Counted from the first letter of the stretch, positions 27,033-32,376 are shown. The stretch is DNA of 64,000 nucleotides from Parcubacteria group bacterium GW2011_GWA2_42_14 (GCA_000998135.1 LCCV01000001.1:8958-72957); one strand, 5' to 3'. Translations and numbers: made by a program. Notes: a model not told the origin generated them from the sequence alone.

Positions 27033-27159
27033 AATCCCAAATTCCAATTTCCAAATCTCAAATAAATTCTAAAATCAAATGTTCAAAATTTTTTTTGAAT
27101 TTTGGATTTCGGTAATTCGATATTATTTAGGATTTGATGCTTAGAATTTGGGATTTCAC

Positions 27160-27205
27160 CCCCCGAAATTATTTAATCGCGATTAAATAATTTCGGGGGG
27201 TGACA
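27160..27205. repeat. Perfect 21-bp-arm palindrome whose right arm is the 5' acceptor strand of the tmRNA.
   Basis: Sequence caccccccgaaattatttaatcgc|gattaaataatttcggggggtg. Confidence 0.7.
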
Positions 27206-27653
27206 GGCTTCGACAGGTCATTGAAAGCATTAAAAATCGGGTGGAAGACGTGGAGTAACTTCCTAAAATAATCTTCACAAAAATAAGTGCAAACTTATTG
27301 TCACGAGCAAAAGCAGTTTTTGCGTCAATTTTTGACACAACCGACTCATTTGCTCCAGCTTTTGCCTAACGGTAAAAGCGACTTGTTGCGATAGTAATAT
27401 CGCAACCATCGTCATAACTGGCGCTTGACCGGTTATCAAACGGTGTCATATACTCAAGCTTAATCGATTGATTTTTTCGGGATTAGTCGATGACAAATTT
27501 TCCGAAAGGGATTATGAGTGTTTTGCCTAATTCATAATTCATAATTCCCTGCCCCGAGTTAAATCGAGGGGTTAAACAATAATTCGGCTATCGCCCGTAC
27601 AAATTTTTGATGTAATATGCATCTGGACATGGGTTCGATTCCCATCACTTCCA
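27195..27653 (+). ncRNA. ssrA: tmRNA (ssrA).
   Basis: The 5' end GGGGGUGACAGGCUUCGACAGG matches the tmRNA consensus. The 3' end has a T-arm (auggg-UUCGAUU-cccau) followed by an acceptor strand CACUUCC and a discriminator A, then the sequence continues UCG, so no CCA is encoded. The acceptor stem pairs with a G3.U70 wobble, the Ala identity element. A resume-codon context AAAUAAGUGCAAAC resembles E. coli AAUAGUCGCAAAC. The gene lies immediately downstream of smpB. Confidence 0.8.
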
Positions 27654-27667
27654 TCGAATAAAAATAA

Positions 27668-27836: not shown

Positions 27837-28028
27837 TCATTTCGTTGGTTTTCTTAAACCTAAAGAATAATCGATTGCTTCATCAATAACATCATACCAA
27901 GAAATCCTATCTCCTATTGGTTCAATTACCTTTTCTATTTCATTCTTGGTTAACCGCCTCCCATAAGTTTCTTTTGCTACTTGTTGAATATCTGTAACGG
28001 TAAGTTTGTAGATCGTCTTGTTTTTCAT
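27837..28028 (-). CDS. Small hypothetical protein.
   Basis: A 63-aa ORF at the edge of the island downstream of ssrA. Confidence 0.3.
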   Translation of the reverse strand: MKNKTIYKLTVTDIQQVAKETYGRRLTKNEIEKVIEPIGDRISWYDVIDEAIDYSLGLRKPTK

Positions 28029-28284
28029 GGTGTATTTAATTTAGAAATAAAAAATATTTTCACGATGCCATCGAGTTGAACTTCGATGCGGGTAGATTTC
28101 TTTTCTCTTTGGCAAAATAATTTTGTAGCCTTTACTCGATAAAACCCTAATGAAGTCATAATTTCCCATTCTCCCAAAATTAGACGGTAGAGAACTTACT
28201 TTCGGTGAAACTTTAATCTTGGAAAAATGTGCCTGGTGACTGACATCATTTTCATTTTTCTAACACCATTTTTTCTTTTTAGAA

Positions 28285-29136
28285 CTAAGCAACAAACCCT
28301 GAAGAAGCAATACCTGAATCATTTATTCTTTTTAATGCAAGTTTACAATAATGTTTATTATTATCTATGCCTATAAATTTTCTGCCGGTCATTTGAGCTA
28401 CAACAGGAAGAGTGCCGCTGCCCATAAATGGGTCAATAATAATATCTCCTTTATTGCTTGTACCGACGACTAGACGATTTATAAGCTCGACTGGTTTTTG
28501 TGAAGGATGTTTGCCATGTCTTTTTTCAGAAATAGAGGTTGATGGTATATCCCACATGTTTCTCATTTGTATACCGCCGTTTATTTCCTTAAGTTTTTTA
28601 TAATTAAAAATCCAGTTTTTTGCATTTTTTTTAGTTTCGTTCACAGCCCAAATTATATGCTCCGTACTTTCGCATAACATTCGCTGAGTAACATTAGGGA
28701 AAGCATTCCGCTTATACCAGATAATAGAATTTATCAATTTGCGATTTAGGTTTTGTAAGATAGTGCCAATTTGATATATGTTGTGATACGAACCGAAAAC
28801 AATAATATTGCCGTTTGGTTTGACAACCCTAGCCACTTCAAAAAGCCAATCTTTAGTGAATGATAAGTAATCGTCATCTGAAAATTTATCCCACCCTGCA
28901 TCGATTTTTGAAAAGTTTTTCTCTTTTGTCCAAACCTCATTAGATTGGAGCCAGCCGATTTTTTTCTTATGATCATAGCCAGAAATATTATAAGGCGGAT
29001 CGGTAATACAGTGGTCAACTGAATGACTCGGAAGCGACCTAAGAATTTTAATGGCATCGCCAAAAACCAAAGAACTTTCTCGGGTAGTGTCAATTTCCTC
29101 TTTTAATGATATGCTTTTCATCGATGAATACTTCAA
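28285..29136 (-). CDS. DNA methyltransferase of the beta class (N6-adenine or N4-cytosine).
   Basis: Motif IV DPPY (HCITDPPYNI) lies N-terminal and motif I FxGSG (DPFMGSGT) C-terminal, the beta-class order. A ParB/SPOUT-free core of about 280 aa. Confidence 0.8.
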   Translation of the reverse strand: MKYSSMKSISLKEEIDTTRESSLVFGDAIKILRSLPSHSVDHCITDPPYNISGYDHKKKIGWLQSNEVWTKEKNFSKIDAGWDKFSDDDYLSFTKDWLFEVARVVKPNGNIIVFGSYHNIYQIGTILQNLNRKLINSIIWYKRNAFPNVTQRMLCESTEHIIWAVNETKKNAKNWIFNYKKLKEINGGIQMRNMWDIPSTSISEKRHGKHPSQKPVELINRLVVGTSNKGDIIIDPFMGSGTLPVVAQMTGRKFIGIDNNKHYCKLALKRINDSGIASSGFVA

Positions 29137-30101
29137 ACGTAGACAATCTTATAAATCAGTTGAAACAACTTCAATCCGATTTCCATGCTACATTCGGCGT
29201 TACCGATATTATAACAAATAGTAAGATATTTGAGATCCTCATTGCCAACTCCCTTGACCATATTCTTATTCCTGGTCATTCAGGATCTCGCGACGCAAAA
29301 GACGCTACGGGCAAAGAATTCGAATATAAACATTATAAGGAAAGTAGCTCAAATCATTCGTGGACTTTTAATGACTTCTCCGACACTACTATTACCAAAC
29401 TAGCCAATACTAAGGCGGTTATTTTTGCACATATACAGGATGCGGATTTGCCGTTTCCAAAATTTGACTGGTATTACGAAGTGTCAGGCCGAGTAATATC
29501 AGATTATTTGGCAAAAGCTACCCGGAAAATAAAAAATAACAGGAAAATGATCAATGTGAGTCCTAAGCAAATTGAAGAACGCATGGGACTCACCAAACAG
29601 ATAGTAAGTCATTCCTCCGGCCGTTATTCTTCTTGGATCAAACGCATTATTGATGTTGCCGGTAAGATTGAAATTGAAGTCGGTACGGTCGGTATTCTCA
29701 CGAGTAATAAATTTTGGGAAGTTTTAGTTGCGCTTAAGTTGGGTCATAGGGTTCAATCCGAACAGGCCAAACATGACGCCACCGATAAAGCCGGCAATAT
29801 GTACGAGTATAAAGTGGCAAAAGGATCAAGTTGGAGTTTCCAAGATATTTCAAATGATGTTTTGCGTAAATATCTTTCCGACCAAAATATTATTTTGGCT
29901 TGTGTCGATAAGGACGATTTTTTGGTTAAGAAAATATATGTTGCCAACACTAAAAAGATTGTTGGCTTGTTAAGAAAAAAACTGCGTGAAAAAAAACGAC
30001 GGTACTCTCTACTGGGAAAGGAAGTTCGGCGAAAACAAATATCACTTACTGTAAAAGATCTAAGAAATATTCGAACAAAACTGATATATTCGGCTGACTA
30101 A
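29106..30101 (+). CDS. Putative restriction endonuclease: a tandem-duplicated PD-(D/E)xK domain on a single chain.
   Basis: Two internally repeated halves each carry D-x(n)-E-Y-K (GSRDAKDATGKEFEYKHYKESSSNHSWTFNDF and EQAKHDATDKAGNMYEYKVAKGSSWSFQDI). The gene is divergently overlapped with one methyltransferase and convergent with the second. Confidence 0.45.
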   Translation: MICFSSMNTSNVDNLINQLKQLQSDFHATFGVTDIITNSKIFEILIANSLDHILIPGHSGSRDAKDATGKEFEYKHYKESSSNHSWTFNDFSDTTITKLANTKAVIFAHIQDADLPFPKFDWYYEVSGRVISDYLAKATRKIKNNRKMINVSPKQIEERMGLTKQIVSHSSGRYSSWIKRIIDVAGKIEIEVGTVGILTSNKFWEVLVALKLGHRVQSEQAKHDATDKAGNMYEYKVAKGSSWSFQDISNDVLRKYLSDQNIILACVDKDDFLVKKIYVANTKKIVGLLRKKLREKKRRYSLLGKEVRRKQISLTVKDLRNIRTKLIYSAD

Positions 30102-31432
30102 AATAATTTTTTAGGTAAATTTTCTATTCTGTCCAATGATTGTTTCCAATACTGTTTTGATATCTCAAAACCAATATAATTTCTTTTCGCTTCGATACAA
30201 GCAACTGCGGTGGTCCCGCTACCCATAAATGGATCGAGAACCACATCCCCCTCTTTTGTGGTTAAGTTGATTAGTTTTTTAATCAACTCGACGGGTTTTT
30301 GTGTTGGGTGTATTCTACTTTTTCCTTTTGGTGCTTGAATTTTGATAATATTATGTTCGTAGGTGCTATTCCATACGGCCCCGGGCCTCTTTCCGATCAC
30401 TACCGCTTCCCACGCATTAAGAAATCTGGACTTTGCGTTTAGGGGAATGGGGTCTGGTTTTTGCCAAACAAGAACATCTATTGCTATAAATCCATTTTTT
30501 TCTAAACCATCAATAAAAAATCCGACATCTTTTTTTGCACAAAAGGTCATCATCCAACCCTTTGTCTTTTTTAACGCAATATCAAACCACTCTTTATTAA
30601 ACGTATCCCATTCACCAAAGTTAAAATTTAATTTTGCTGTCGTTCCGAGTCTTTGGCCCTTACAATTAAGCTCCCTGCTAATACCGTATGGGGGATCTGT
30701 TACTATCAAATCAACAGATTCATTGGGAAATTTTTGTAATTCTGCTACAGCATCTCCGCAAATAATTTTATTCAACGGTAGTTTTGAATATTGTTGTACC
30801 AATATTGCGGGCTTAGATTGATTAATTGGAGTAGTACTTTCATTTCTAATAACATCAACGACTATTCCCTGAATGGTGATCTCACGACCATTTTGTAATA
30901 TAATCGGTTCCATGCCTCTATTCGCCGGTTGCAAACGAATATGCCCACGCTCTTTATAAAATTTCTTTAGAGTTGCTTCGTGATTGTCTATAAGAGCTAC
31001 CACCTTCTGTCCGTTCTCGGCTGTTTCTTGTTGACGGACCAAAACAACATCACCGTCGTTGATATTTTCATCCACCATACTATTTCCAACCACGCGGAGA
31101 GCATAAACACCTGACGCATGAGGAAATTTACTTTTTGGTACAGCAATCATCTCTTTTTCTTGGACTGCTTCAATTGGCTCTCCGGCTGCAATAGTTCCCA
31201 ATAAAGGAATTCTTACTAACTTTTCTGTTTTTGAAACTTCGATGCTTCTTCGTTGATTTTTTTGCTTATCCAAATAACCTTTTGTCTTCAATGCTTCAAC
31301 GTGCTGATGAACAGTCGCAACAGATGACAAATGAAAACCCCTCTTAATCTCCTCCAGGGATGGGGAATAACCATATTTCTTATTGTATCCCTTAATAAAA
31401 TCCAGTATTTGTTTTTGTCTTTTTGTAAACAT
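30098..31432 (-). CDS. Fusion of a LexA-like repressor (HTH plus S24 peptidase) to a DNA methyltransferase.
   Basis: Residues 1-~205 contain a LexA winged HTH (RQKQILDFIKGY...VHQHVEALKTKGYL), the AAG cleavage site (IAAGEPIEA), the S24 catalytic Ser (VVGNSMVD) and Lys (ATLKKF). Residues ~206-444 contain DPPY (LIVTDPPYGI) followed by FxGSG (DPFMGSGT). Confidence 0.8.
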   Translation of the reverse strand: MFTKRQKQILDFIKGYNKKYGYSPSLEEIKRGFHLSSVATVHQHVEALKTKGYLDKQKNQRRSIEVSKTEKLVRIPLLGTIAAGEPIEAVQEKEMIAVPKSKFPHASGVYALRVVGNSMVDENINDGDVVLVRQQETAENGQKVVALIDNHEATLKKFYKERGHIRLQPANRGMEPIILQNGREITIQGIVVDVIRNESTTPINQSKPAILVQQYSKLPLNKIICGDAVAELQKFPNESVDLIVTDPPYGISRELNCKGQRLGTTAKLNFNFGEWDTFNKEWFDIALKKTKGWMMTFCAKKDVGFFIDGLEKNGFIAIDVLVWQKPDPIPLNAKSRFLNAWEAVVIGKRPGAVWNSTYEHNIIKIQAPKGKSRIHPTQKPVELIKKLINLTTKEGDVVLDPFMGSGTTAVACIEAKRNYIGFEISKQYWKQSLDRIENLPKKLF

Positions 31433-31716
31433 GTTGATTTTATTATAAAATATACTATACCGAAAGAAAACCGAAAGTTATCCACAGTTAAGCACTTGTA
31501 CTTACGAATAACTGTTATAGAATAATTTTGAAACGCGTTTTTTATAAGGATGGCGGGAATGAAATGACCATCCATGCAACTCTGCTACGCGGGGGGTCAT
31601 TAGGCCTGTTGCTTATTAAGATTTTAGCCGTTTTTTTAAAAAATTAGTGGCTTAAAATAAGGGTTTTTTGCATCAAATTTTCCCAAAAAATTATTAAGCA
31701 ACATCATATTTTTCCA

Positions 31717-32376
31717 GTGTCCTGGTATCCGGATTCAACCCCCGAAAACCTTGAAAAATGGACTGCTCCTTCCTGTGAAGAGTGTAATCAGAAACTTGGA
31801 AAAATTGAATCTGAAATATGCCTTCGGGTTGGACCTGCTACAAATCCATCTGATTCGGCCGCATCAGGGATTGCCGAGTCAACCATGCGAAGAATTAAGC
31901 CCGATTTAGCCCGAGATTCGCGAAGCAAGGGAAGAAAGATTGCCGAATTAAAAAAACTTTTTAAGGAGTTCGTAGTAACGACAAATTTACCTCCTGCGAT
32001 AATGAAAAACTTTGGCCCAAGTAATAAAAGCACACGTTATCATATTCTTTTCCTCCCTTATGATAAACTACTTGATCCTTTTGCTGAAAAAATTATTAGG
32101 GGACTTGAATATAAATTATACAATCGATTTGTAACCCGTGATAAAATCATAAGACCAGTATATCTTCCGGACTCAACCCATTTTAATGAAATCGAACAAC
32201 TAAAAGAAATTATTAAACAAAACGGAAAAGAAACAAATCGGGGTCCGGGATTTATTATTGAACATGCACACGACAAACATGGTACGTTTTTATATCACAT
32301 AACAATCTGGGGTAAATTTAAATTTTGGGCTGATGTGACTTCTAAGCATTTGGAGGGTGGTTCTAACCAAATCTGA
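31717..32376 (+). CDS. Hypothetical protein.
   Basis: A 219-aa ORF with a GTG start, adjacent to the R-M module. Confidence 0.35.
   Translation: MSWYPDSTPENLEKWTAPSCEECNQKLGKIESEICLRVGPATNPSDSAASGIAESTMRRIKPDLARDSRSKGRKIAELKKLFKEFVVTTNLPPAIMKNFGPSNKSTRYHILFLPYDKLLDPFAEKIIRGLEYKLYNRFVTRDKIIRPVYLPDSTHFNEIEQLKEIIKQNGKETNRGPGFIIEHAHDKHGTFLYHITIWGKFKFWADVTSKHLEGGSNQI

Follow-up and report, generated by a model that had tools for sequence, protein, structure and literature searches.

A complete LexA repressor fused to a DNA methyltransferase in a predicted type II restriction-modification cassette of Patescibacteria

How restriction-modification spares its host when methylation falls behind, as it does when a system enters a new cell and after repair synthesis or DNA damage, is a long-standing question, to which the type II answers so far are controller proteins and helix-turn-helix (HTH) regions borne by the methyltransferase. 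Here we analyze a three-gene cassette in a 64,000-nucleotide stretch of DNA (the window) from Parcubacteria group bacterium GW2011_GWA2_42_14 (LCCV01000001.1:8958-72957), in which one of two methyltransferases, M1, is joined to a LexA-type SOS repressor. The host is a tiny groundwater bacterium of the Patescibacteria, or Candidate Phyla Radiation. Methyltransferase-borne autoregulation as such is known. Methyltransferases of the SsoII, EcoRII, MspI and ScrFIA type are C5 methyltransferases with an N-terminal HTH autoregulatory region, and as is proposed for the fusion, the methyltransferase polypeptide bears a DNA-binding domain that represses its own promoter. What would be new is autoregulation of this kind using a self-cleaving SOS repressor: those enzymes have a short HTH, no protease and no damage input, whereas the head of M1 is a LexA of ∼200 residues with cleavage site and catalytic dyad.

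The other relatives of this design are regulators encoded apart from the methyltransferase. C proteins, as in PvuII, AhdI and Esp1396I, are separate small HTH_3 proteins acting on the nuclease operon. As is proposed for the fusion, a dedicated transcription factor times the expression of methyltransferase and nuclease, but the putative regulator in the fusion is covalently attached; an HTH_3 controller gene is present in addition in 25 related fusion loci and absent from the window cassette. LexA and the LexA-like self-cleaving repressors encoded by mobile elements (lambda CI, SetR) share with the head of M1 an HTH or winged HTH joined to an S24 domain, an Ala-Gly site and a Ser/Lys dyad, together with the autoregulation at their own promoter that we propose for M1; in the fusion, however, the repressor and the product that it is predicted to control form a single chain. 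To our knowledge, LexA-like repressors (LexA, lambda CI, SetR) have never been described as fused to an enzyme. Type I restriction alleviation after DNA damage, which works by ClpXP proteolysis of HsdR or by assembly failure (PMC12707154), follows the same logic as we propose below for the fusion, with damage shifting the balance away from restricting the cell's own DNA, but it is nontranscriptional and does without LexA. The word LexA is absent from that 2025 review of restriction-modification biology (EcoSal Plus, PMC12707154). A full-text literature search, which did not take in a 2017 study of the Patescibacteria SOS network, found no description of a LexA–methyltransferase fusion; an earlier reading of the window made from the sequence alone (hereafter, the sequence-only reading) had likewise named no precedent.

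Architecture of the fusion protein

The cassette is a predicted type II restriction-modification system of three genes, encoding the methyltransferase M2, a nuclease and M1. Its genes and the parts of M1 are as follows.

28285..29121 (-): M2, beta-class CcrM-like DNA methyltransferase, 278 amino acids (PF01555, E 2e-49)
29124..30101 (+): restriction nuclease, 325 amino acids, modeled as a single-chain tandem PvuII-fold pseudo-dimer (AlphaFold 2 model and Foldseek)
30098..31432 (-): M1, LexA–methyltransferase fusion, 444 amino acids (Pfam and NCBIfam matches)
31238..31432 (-): LexA winged-helix DNA-binding domain of M1, residues 1-65 (PF01726, E 7.5e-16)
30842..31219 (-): S24 autoprotease/dimerization domain of M1, residues 72-197 (PF00717, E 2e-30)
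30770..30841 (-): linker of M1, residues 198-221, largely disordered (AlphaFold 2 predicted local distance difference test score, pLDDT, <50 at 198-211)
30110..30769 (-): beta-class methyltransferase domain of M1, residues 222-441 (PF01555, E 2.4e-42)
31181-31186 (-): Ala83-Gly84 cleavage site of M1 (alignment to Escherichia coli LexA)
31079-31081 (-): catalytic Ser118 of M1 (same alignment)
30965-30967 (-): catalytic Lys156 of M1 (same alignment)

M1 is identical (100%) to a protein annotated as "repressor LexA" (P0001) of Candidatus Sungbacteria bacterium RIFCSPLOWO2_12_FULL_41_11. Against the NCBI equivalog model TIGR00498 for lexA, which has a cut-off of 111 bits, whole M1 scores 197.7 bits and the head alone (residues 1-205) 200.7 bits. 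Pfam places LexA_DNA_bind at residues 3-62, Peptidase_S24 at 76-192 and N6_N4_Mtase at 240-432; for the last of these (PF01555; threshold, 26.7 bits), the scores are 145.8 bits for M1 and 168.9 bits for M2. The domain matches of M1 are thus far above curated thresholds, and chance is excluded.

The head can be aligned end to end with solved LexA structures, the Thermotoga maritima LexA structure 3k2z pairing with residues 2-196 of M1 (E 4e-35). A83-G84, S118 and K156 of M1 align with A84-G85, S119 and K156 of E. coli LexA. The recognition helix reads SVATVHQHV, and in the AlphaFold 2 model the helices of the winged HTH span residues 4-20, 26-33 and 38-50. The model as a whole has three folded domains, with a disordered linker at residues 198-211. 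In the methyltransferase domain, DPPY (246-249) precedes FMGSG (402-406), which is the beta-class order, and both motifs are invariant in 31 homologues; the closest solved relative is the DpnA-type adenine methyltransferase 5hek/5hfj (E 2.7e-35). As far as sequence can tell, M1 joins a full LexA, its cleavage apparatus intact, to a beta-class methyltransferase. The sequence-only reading had described M1 in just these terms, and its account holds: the LexA_DNA_bind, Peptidase_S24 and N6_N4_Mtase models to which it pointed all match, and the Ser and Lys, whose loss would have spoken against it, are present on alignment together with Ala83-Gly84. It had also placed all four elements that it named at the positions found here or within a few codons of them.

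Conservation of the head and of its promoter elements

The fusion is a widespread Patescibacteria design and no oddity of the window island. Full-length fusions of 430-540 amino acids account for ∼100 of the best 120 protein clusters, and the representatives of intermediate length (259-393 amino acids) are LexA followed by a truncated or unassigned tail. In a search for further fusions of the sort that the sequence-only reading had proposed, scanning a single genome for each species yielded 80 loci, and at least 75 species-representative Patescibacteria genomes, of Parcubacteria and Microgenomates lineages, carry a full-length fusion. By tblastn, no record among 72,556 plasmids and 50,697 phages spanned both halves of the fusion, and a scan of viral contigs gave no fusion and only one LexA-like match. 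The nearest stand-alone relatives of the fused head are ∼50% identical to it and include LexAs from outside Patescibacteria.

Across these loci, the heads are 56-75% identical to that of the window and the methyltransferase parts 23-92%. The head is found on five methyltransferase families (beta, gamma-class/Eco57I-type, C5-cytosine, MT-A70 and D12), and the Ala-Gly site and both catalytic residues, Ser and Lys, are intact in 171 of 171 distinct fusions. Head identity of at least 85% (up to 98%) is combined with methyltransferase identity below 40% in 750 pairs, and the reverse pattern, similar methyltransferases with diverged heads, occurs in 280 pairs; the LexA head is therefore a shuffled module. 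A split form of the cassette shares with the window only M2, the nuclease and the methyltransferase half of M1 (28322-30729). There, a separate gene directly upstream of the methyltransferase, encoding an S24 repressor of 214 amino acids, replaces the fused head, and this repressor retains a Cys-Gly site along with the catalytic Ser and Lys.

The surroundings of the fusion gene are similarly regular. The fusion stop has a neighboring gene no more than 200 bp away in 75 of 76 loci; this gene is convergent with the fusion in 56 and usually encodes a nuclease. At least seven recognizable nuclease families occur near fusions: EndoVII/His-Me, RE_TaqI, HNH, MutH-like, PD-(D/E)xK, RE_MamI and the tandem PvuII type of the window. 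Among the 56 convergent pairs, 45 overlap at their 3′ ends, including the pair in the window, where the M1 and nuclease genes share 4 nt.

Upstream of M1, we found two conserved elements and two candidate hexamers.

31477..31486 (-): TGTGGATAAC, whose reverse complement contains TTATCCACA, the consensus DnaA box (conservation)
31459..31476 (-): putative operator of the LexA head, a TTTCGGT-N4-TTTCGGT direct repeat with an 11-bp period (conservation and uniqueness)
31454-31459 (-): candidate -10 hexamer TATAGT (read from the sequence)
31442-31447 (-): candidate -10 hexamer TATAAT, 9 nt before the ATG (read from the sequence)

On the minus strand, the composite element of the window runs TGTGGATAAC-TTTCGGTTTTCTTTCGGT (31486-31459), followed by TATAGT and TATAAT. 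At zero mismatches the repeat is unique in the window, and with at most one mismatch it is present in 63 of 71 nonredundant upstream regions of fusions. It spans the -35/-10 region, and in many loci it lies between recognizable hexamers, for example TTGACT...TATAAT; a consensus sigma-70 scan made no call for the fusion promoter of the window because the -35 is weak. Within 964 kb of flanking DNA, 69 matches to the repeat fell at fusion starts, and 7 matches, each with one mismatch, fell inside open reading frames (ORFs). In a metagenome scan for the window-type repeat, 21 of 81 matches stood before LexA-head genes and 59 looked random. The one remaining match (metagenome locus L129, 3386-4050) has box plus repeat between a LexA–methyltransferase gene and a divergent HEPN_AbiU2 (abortive infection) gene, so that the head may control other defense genes.

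The repeat unit tracks the recognition helix: helices with H-F-H go with TTTC(T/G)AT, those with H-Q-H with TTTCGGT and those with H-E-H mostly with TTTCGGG, a suggestive co-variation. Two palindromes proposed as LexA boxes by the sequence-only reading, ACAGTT-N18-AACTGT and AAACGCGTTT, do not recur upstream of related fusions, and we rejected them as operators; conserved instead are the direct repeat and the adjoining 10-mer. Direct-repeat operators have precedents, since LexA of Alphaproteobacteria binds GTTC-N7-GTTC (PMC8565304), and a direct-repeat LexA motif of Patescibacteria is reported in a passage of PMC7739468 that cites Sanchez-Osuna 2017. The repeat at the fusions shares with both the tandem units and the 11-bp period, and GTTC-N7-GTTC itself occurs verbatim in some fusion promoters (L039). 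It differs from these known boxes in its unit, TTTC(G/T)(G/A)T, in its DnaA-box-like flank and in being found only at methyltransferase promoters.

The flanking 10-mer, TGTGGATAAC, occurs once in the window and, with at most one mismatch, in 65 of the 71 fusion upstream regions; the split form has it with one mismatch. Moreover, it is upstream of all seven stand-alone Patescibacteria lexA genes examined, where it abuts another tandem repeat, GTATATA-N-GTATATA. The full-text literature search yielded no description of a DnaA box at lexA promoters. Across loci, the DnaA-box consensus (TTATCCACA / TGTGGATAA) stands, perfect or nearly so and in either orientation, just upstream of promoters and beside lineage-specific tandem repeats (31477-31486 in the window, ∼870-885 in L001, ∼2935-2960 in L209, L211 and L213, ∼945-960 in L214-L216). 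Because the box flips in orientation between loci and keeps its sequence where the repeats differ, the involvement of a third factor at TGTGGATAAC is likely. In many window-type promoters (in the metagenome, L091, L092, L094, L105, L108, L133, L139 and L147), the box recurs as TGTG(G/A)A(A/T)AAC downstream of the -10 and ahead of the start codon; the window is without this second copy.

A proposed damage-responsive circuit and its alternatives

We consider it moderately probable that the cassette is a mobile type II restriction-modification unit whose methyltransferase M1 holds down its own expression until RecA-stimulated self-cleavage releases it, so that modification would be coupled to DNA damage. 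The architecture, its conservation and the operator statistics are observed; that the head binds DNA, that it cleaves itself and which way methylation then shifts are inferred. The LexA head would dimerize through its S24 domain and bind the 11-bp-period repeat across its own promoter. Such autorepression would give high methyltransferase expression on entry into a naive cell and low expression at steady state. Filaments of RecA on single-stranded DNA, raised by external DNA damage or by breaks that the cassette's own nuclease makes at under-methylated sites, would cause the head to cleave itself at Ala83-Gly84. Cleavage would remove the 83-residue DNA-binding domain, the promoter would open and more methyltransferase would be made. 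Because the fusion and nuclease genes are convergent, with a 4-nt overlap and no room for a terminator, induced transcription would continue through the nuclease gene in antisense orientation. Overall, damage would tip the balance toward modification, in a type II equivalent of restriction alleviation that would also curb self-restriction.

Several considerations weigh against this circuit. Fragments of E. coli LexA are degraded after cleavage, and cleavage of M1 could therefore lower methyltransferase activity. If phage infection induces RecA filaments, the extra methyltransferase would help the phage. No RecA gene lies within the window, and recA elsewhere in the genome is assumed; by its ORFs and start-codon spacing, the window cassette has no HTH_3 controller gene either. 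The co-variation of helix and repeat is confounded by shared ancestry because the lineages are few.

We also weighed four other accounts of the fusion. The position of the operator, across the promoter of the fusion itself and at no other site in the vicinity, would equally suit a head that is only a built-in autorepressor or dimerizer with no link to damage, its protease residues an inherited leftover. Beta-class methyltransferases often act as dimers, and a dimerizing head could be useful in itself. Nevertheless, we think this account unlikely. The cleavage site and dyad persist in every one of the 171 fusions, on all five methyltransferase families and in heads down to ∼55% identity, and the different S24 repressor of the split form keeps them as well; a simple HTH would suffice for repression.

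Cleavage might instead serve suicide, in the manner of abortive infection: it would expose degradation signals, the methyltransferase would be destroyed, and the nuclease would kill damaged or infected cells. Cleavage would leave an N-terminal fragment with ...IAA at its end, similar to a ClpX tag, as is known for LexA fragments of E. coli, and the same operator stands at the HEPN_AbiU2 abortive-infection gene of L129. Such an outcome strikes us as distinctly unlikely, given that cleavage also derepresses synthesis of new full-length protein, that any ordinary DNA damage would kill and that the predicted S24–methyltransferase product retains the whole catalytic domain.

That the fusion is the cell's main SOS repressor, with the methyltransferase as a passenger and the cassette as a core SOS gene, we regard as very unlikely. 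The fused head does score 200.7 bits against TIGR00498, compared with 121-131 for the stand-alone Patescibacteria LexAs of ∼235 amino acids; no other LexA lies within the 64-kb window, and the TTATCCACA promoter element is common to both LexA types. However, a stand-alone LexA and a fusion occur together on one Liptonbacteria contig, and the stand-alone family is widespread in Patescibacteria, among ordinary cellular genes. The fusion, in contrast, always accompanies variable methyltransferase/nuclease modules in nonsyntenic contexts, and its operator was found only at fusion promoters in the 964 kb, plus the one AbiU2 gene of the metagenome scan. Finally, an assembly or gene-calling artifact joining two adjacent genes can be practically dismissed, as nothing speaks for it beyond the source being a metagenome-assembled genome, and the frame is uninterrupted in the window, in ∼100 protein clusters of independent assemblies and in at least 75 genomes.

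Nuclease, second methyltransferase and genomic context

The nuclease ORF spans 29106-30101 (+), and its start in the public annotation and in homologues is 29124. Its two halves align with each other at 28% identity (E 4e-12), and each has a D-x9-E-Y-K motif.

29292-29330 (+): catalytic D57/E67/K69 of the nuclease (conserved motif)
29775-29813 (+): catalytic D218/E228/K230 of the nuclease (conserved motif)

Both triads are invariant or nearly so among 56 homologues. The AlphaFold 2 model (pLDDT 91.9) has as its top Foldseek match in the PDB an engineered single-chain PvuII, 3ksk (E 5.7e-15; template-modeling score 0.61-0.67 across ∼335 columns), and wild-type PvuII chains match each half (E 4e-07 to 4e-05). 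The Pfam PvuII family, PF09225, matches the nuclease below threshold (21.0 bits against a gathering score of 25) and in the N-terminal half only; precomputed Pfam lists give PF09225 for its homologues. The family has at least 574 members of ∼325 amino acids and also occurs outside Patescibacteria, in one genome each of Zixibacteria and Oligoflexia and in Clostridioides difficile.

The sequence-only reading had seen in the repeated halves a single-chain pseudo-dimer, with which the alignment of the halves and the match to 3ksk agree. It had further likened the system to type IIS; we rejected a Type IIS architecture, as the two PvuII-like halves fill the whole chain and there is no extra cleavage domain. 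Instead, a PvuII-fold single chain with two complete and nonidentical catalytic sites is of the Type IIT kind. Described Type IIT single-chain enzymes with two catalytic sites are BsrBI, BssSI, AciI and Mva1269I (PMC4081073); like these and like 3ksk, the window nuclease is one polypeptide with two catalytic sites. With the engineered PvuII it shares fold and domain arrangement, but it is a natural tandem duplication whose halves are only 28% identical. With two active sites in a PvuII-like pseudo-dimer, the nuclease probably cleaves both strands at a site that is either asymmetric or degenerate, and the diverged halves together with the two methyltransferases suggest an asymmetric one. A natural single-chain PvuII-type nuclease is also attractive in practice, as one from which strand-specific nickases might be derived.

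The ORF of M2 reaches 29136, from a TTG; because homologues are 277-279 amino acids long, we place the real start at the Met at 29121 (278 amino acids). M2 matches the PADLOC model MTase_II (E 4.7e-75) and has DPPY at residue 41 and then FMGSG at residue 232, the beta-class order. That the cassette holds two beta-class methyltransferases, as first proposed from the sequence, is borne out, since M1 and M2 both match PF01555 with DPPY before FMGSG. The two DPPY-type enzymes probably form N6-methyladenine, and each would protect one strand. The start codons of M2 (29121) and the nuclease (29124) stand back to back with 2 nt between them, as they also do in L001 (10309/10312), and each promoter would therefore lie inside the other gene.

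Elsewhere, the commonest partner genes of the fusions, c1, c3 and c8, have no match in Pfam or PADLOC. Convergent with LexA–methyltransferase genes are c1, of 312-365 amino acids, in 20 loci (for example, L035 2395-3369, L018, L020 and L024), and c3, of ∼230 amino acids, in 7 loci (for example, L078 4462-5148). Both are candidate new restriction nuclease families.

The same three-gene cassette is present in Liptonbacteria with other neighbors, and DNA similarity to it is confined to 28324-31157; the block of M2, nuclease and M1 is conserved in L001, L010, L006 and L017. Its G+C content is modestly lower (36.7% vs. 41.1%). Next to the cassette and outside it lies the gene for transfer-messenger RNA (tmRNA).

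27196..27656 (+): tmRNA (ssrA), context only (Rfam RF00023, 117 bits, E 4.8e-45)

The score compares with an RF00023 gathering score of 47; ARAGORN missed this tmRNA, although Rfam calls it. The proposal that the tmRNA had served as an integration hotspot was not sustained, in that there is neither an integrase nor an att repeat, and the cassette elsewhere occupies unrelated contexts. No ORF between 27.6 and 32.8 kb encodes an integrase, and neither a second copy of the tmRNA 3′ end nor any long repeat at the borders of an island was found; on these two absences, our searches came to the same outcome as the sequence-only reading.

The tmRNA departs from the Rfam model by an insertion of ∼85 nt (27296-27378) at the expected tag reading frame. 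A 24-nt perfect palindrome at 27156-27203, whose second arm consists of the first 8 nt of the tmRNA and its upstream flank, may serve in processing or termination in the smpB–ssrA interval. Two small ORFs with a 4-nt overlap separate the tmRNA from the cassette, 27837-28028 (-) of 63 amino acids and 28025-28177 (-) of 50 amino acids; their layout is toxin–antitoxin-like, and neither has a family match. On the other side, divergent from the fusion gene, an ORF of 219 amino acids with a CxxC motif (31717-32376, +) is likewise without a family match, and a homologue of it adjoins another LexA–methyltransferase system (L086, 10448-11215).

Beyond the window, we would tentatively entertain a broader picture: a portable "LexA head plus promoter" module, grafted onto every major methyltransferase class across Patescibacteria, would act as a hard-wired sensor of damage and self-restriction, with the methyltransferase as a RecA-cleavable repressor. 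The invariant TTATCCACA, common to fusion and stand-alone lexA promoters, suggests that DnaA or another common factor might couple all LexA-family genes to replication status. If autorepression relieved by self-cleavage is how M1 works, type II systems would have a direct feedback loop from damage to modification, recurring in many systems on five methyltransferase families. Bacteria of the Candidate Phyla Radiation are largely without CRISPR and dependent on restriction-modification, and it is on their biology that the fusion bears.

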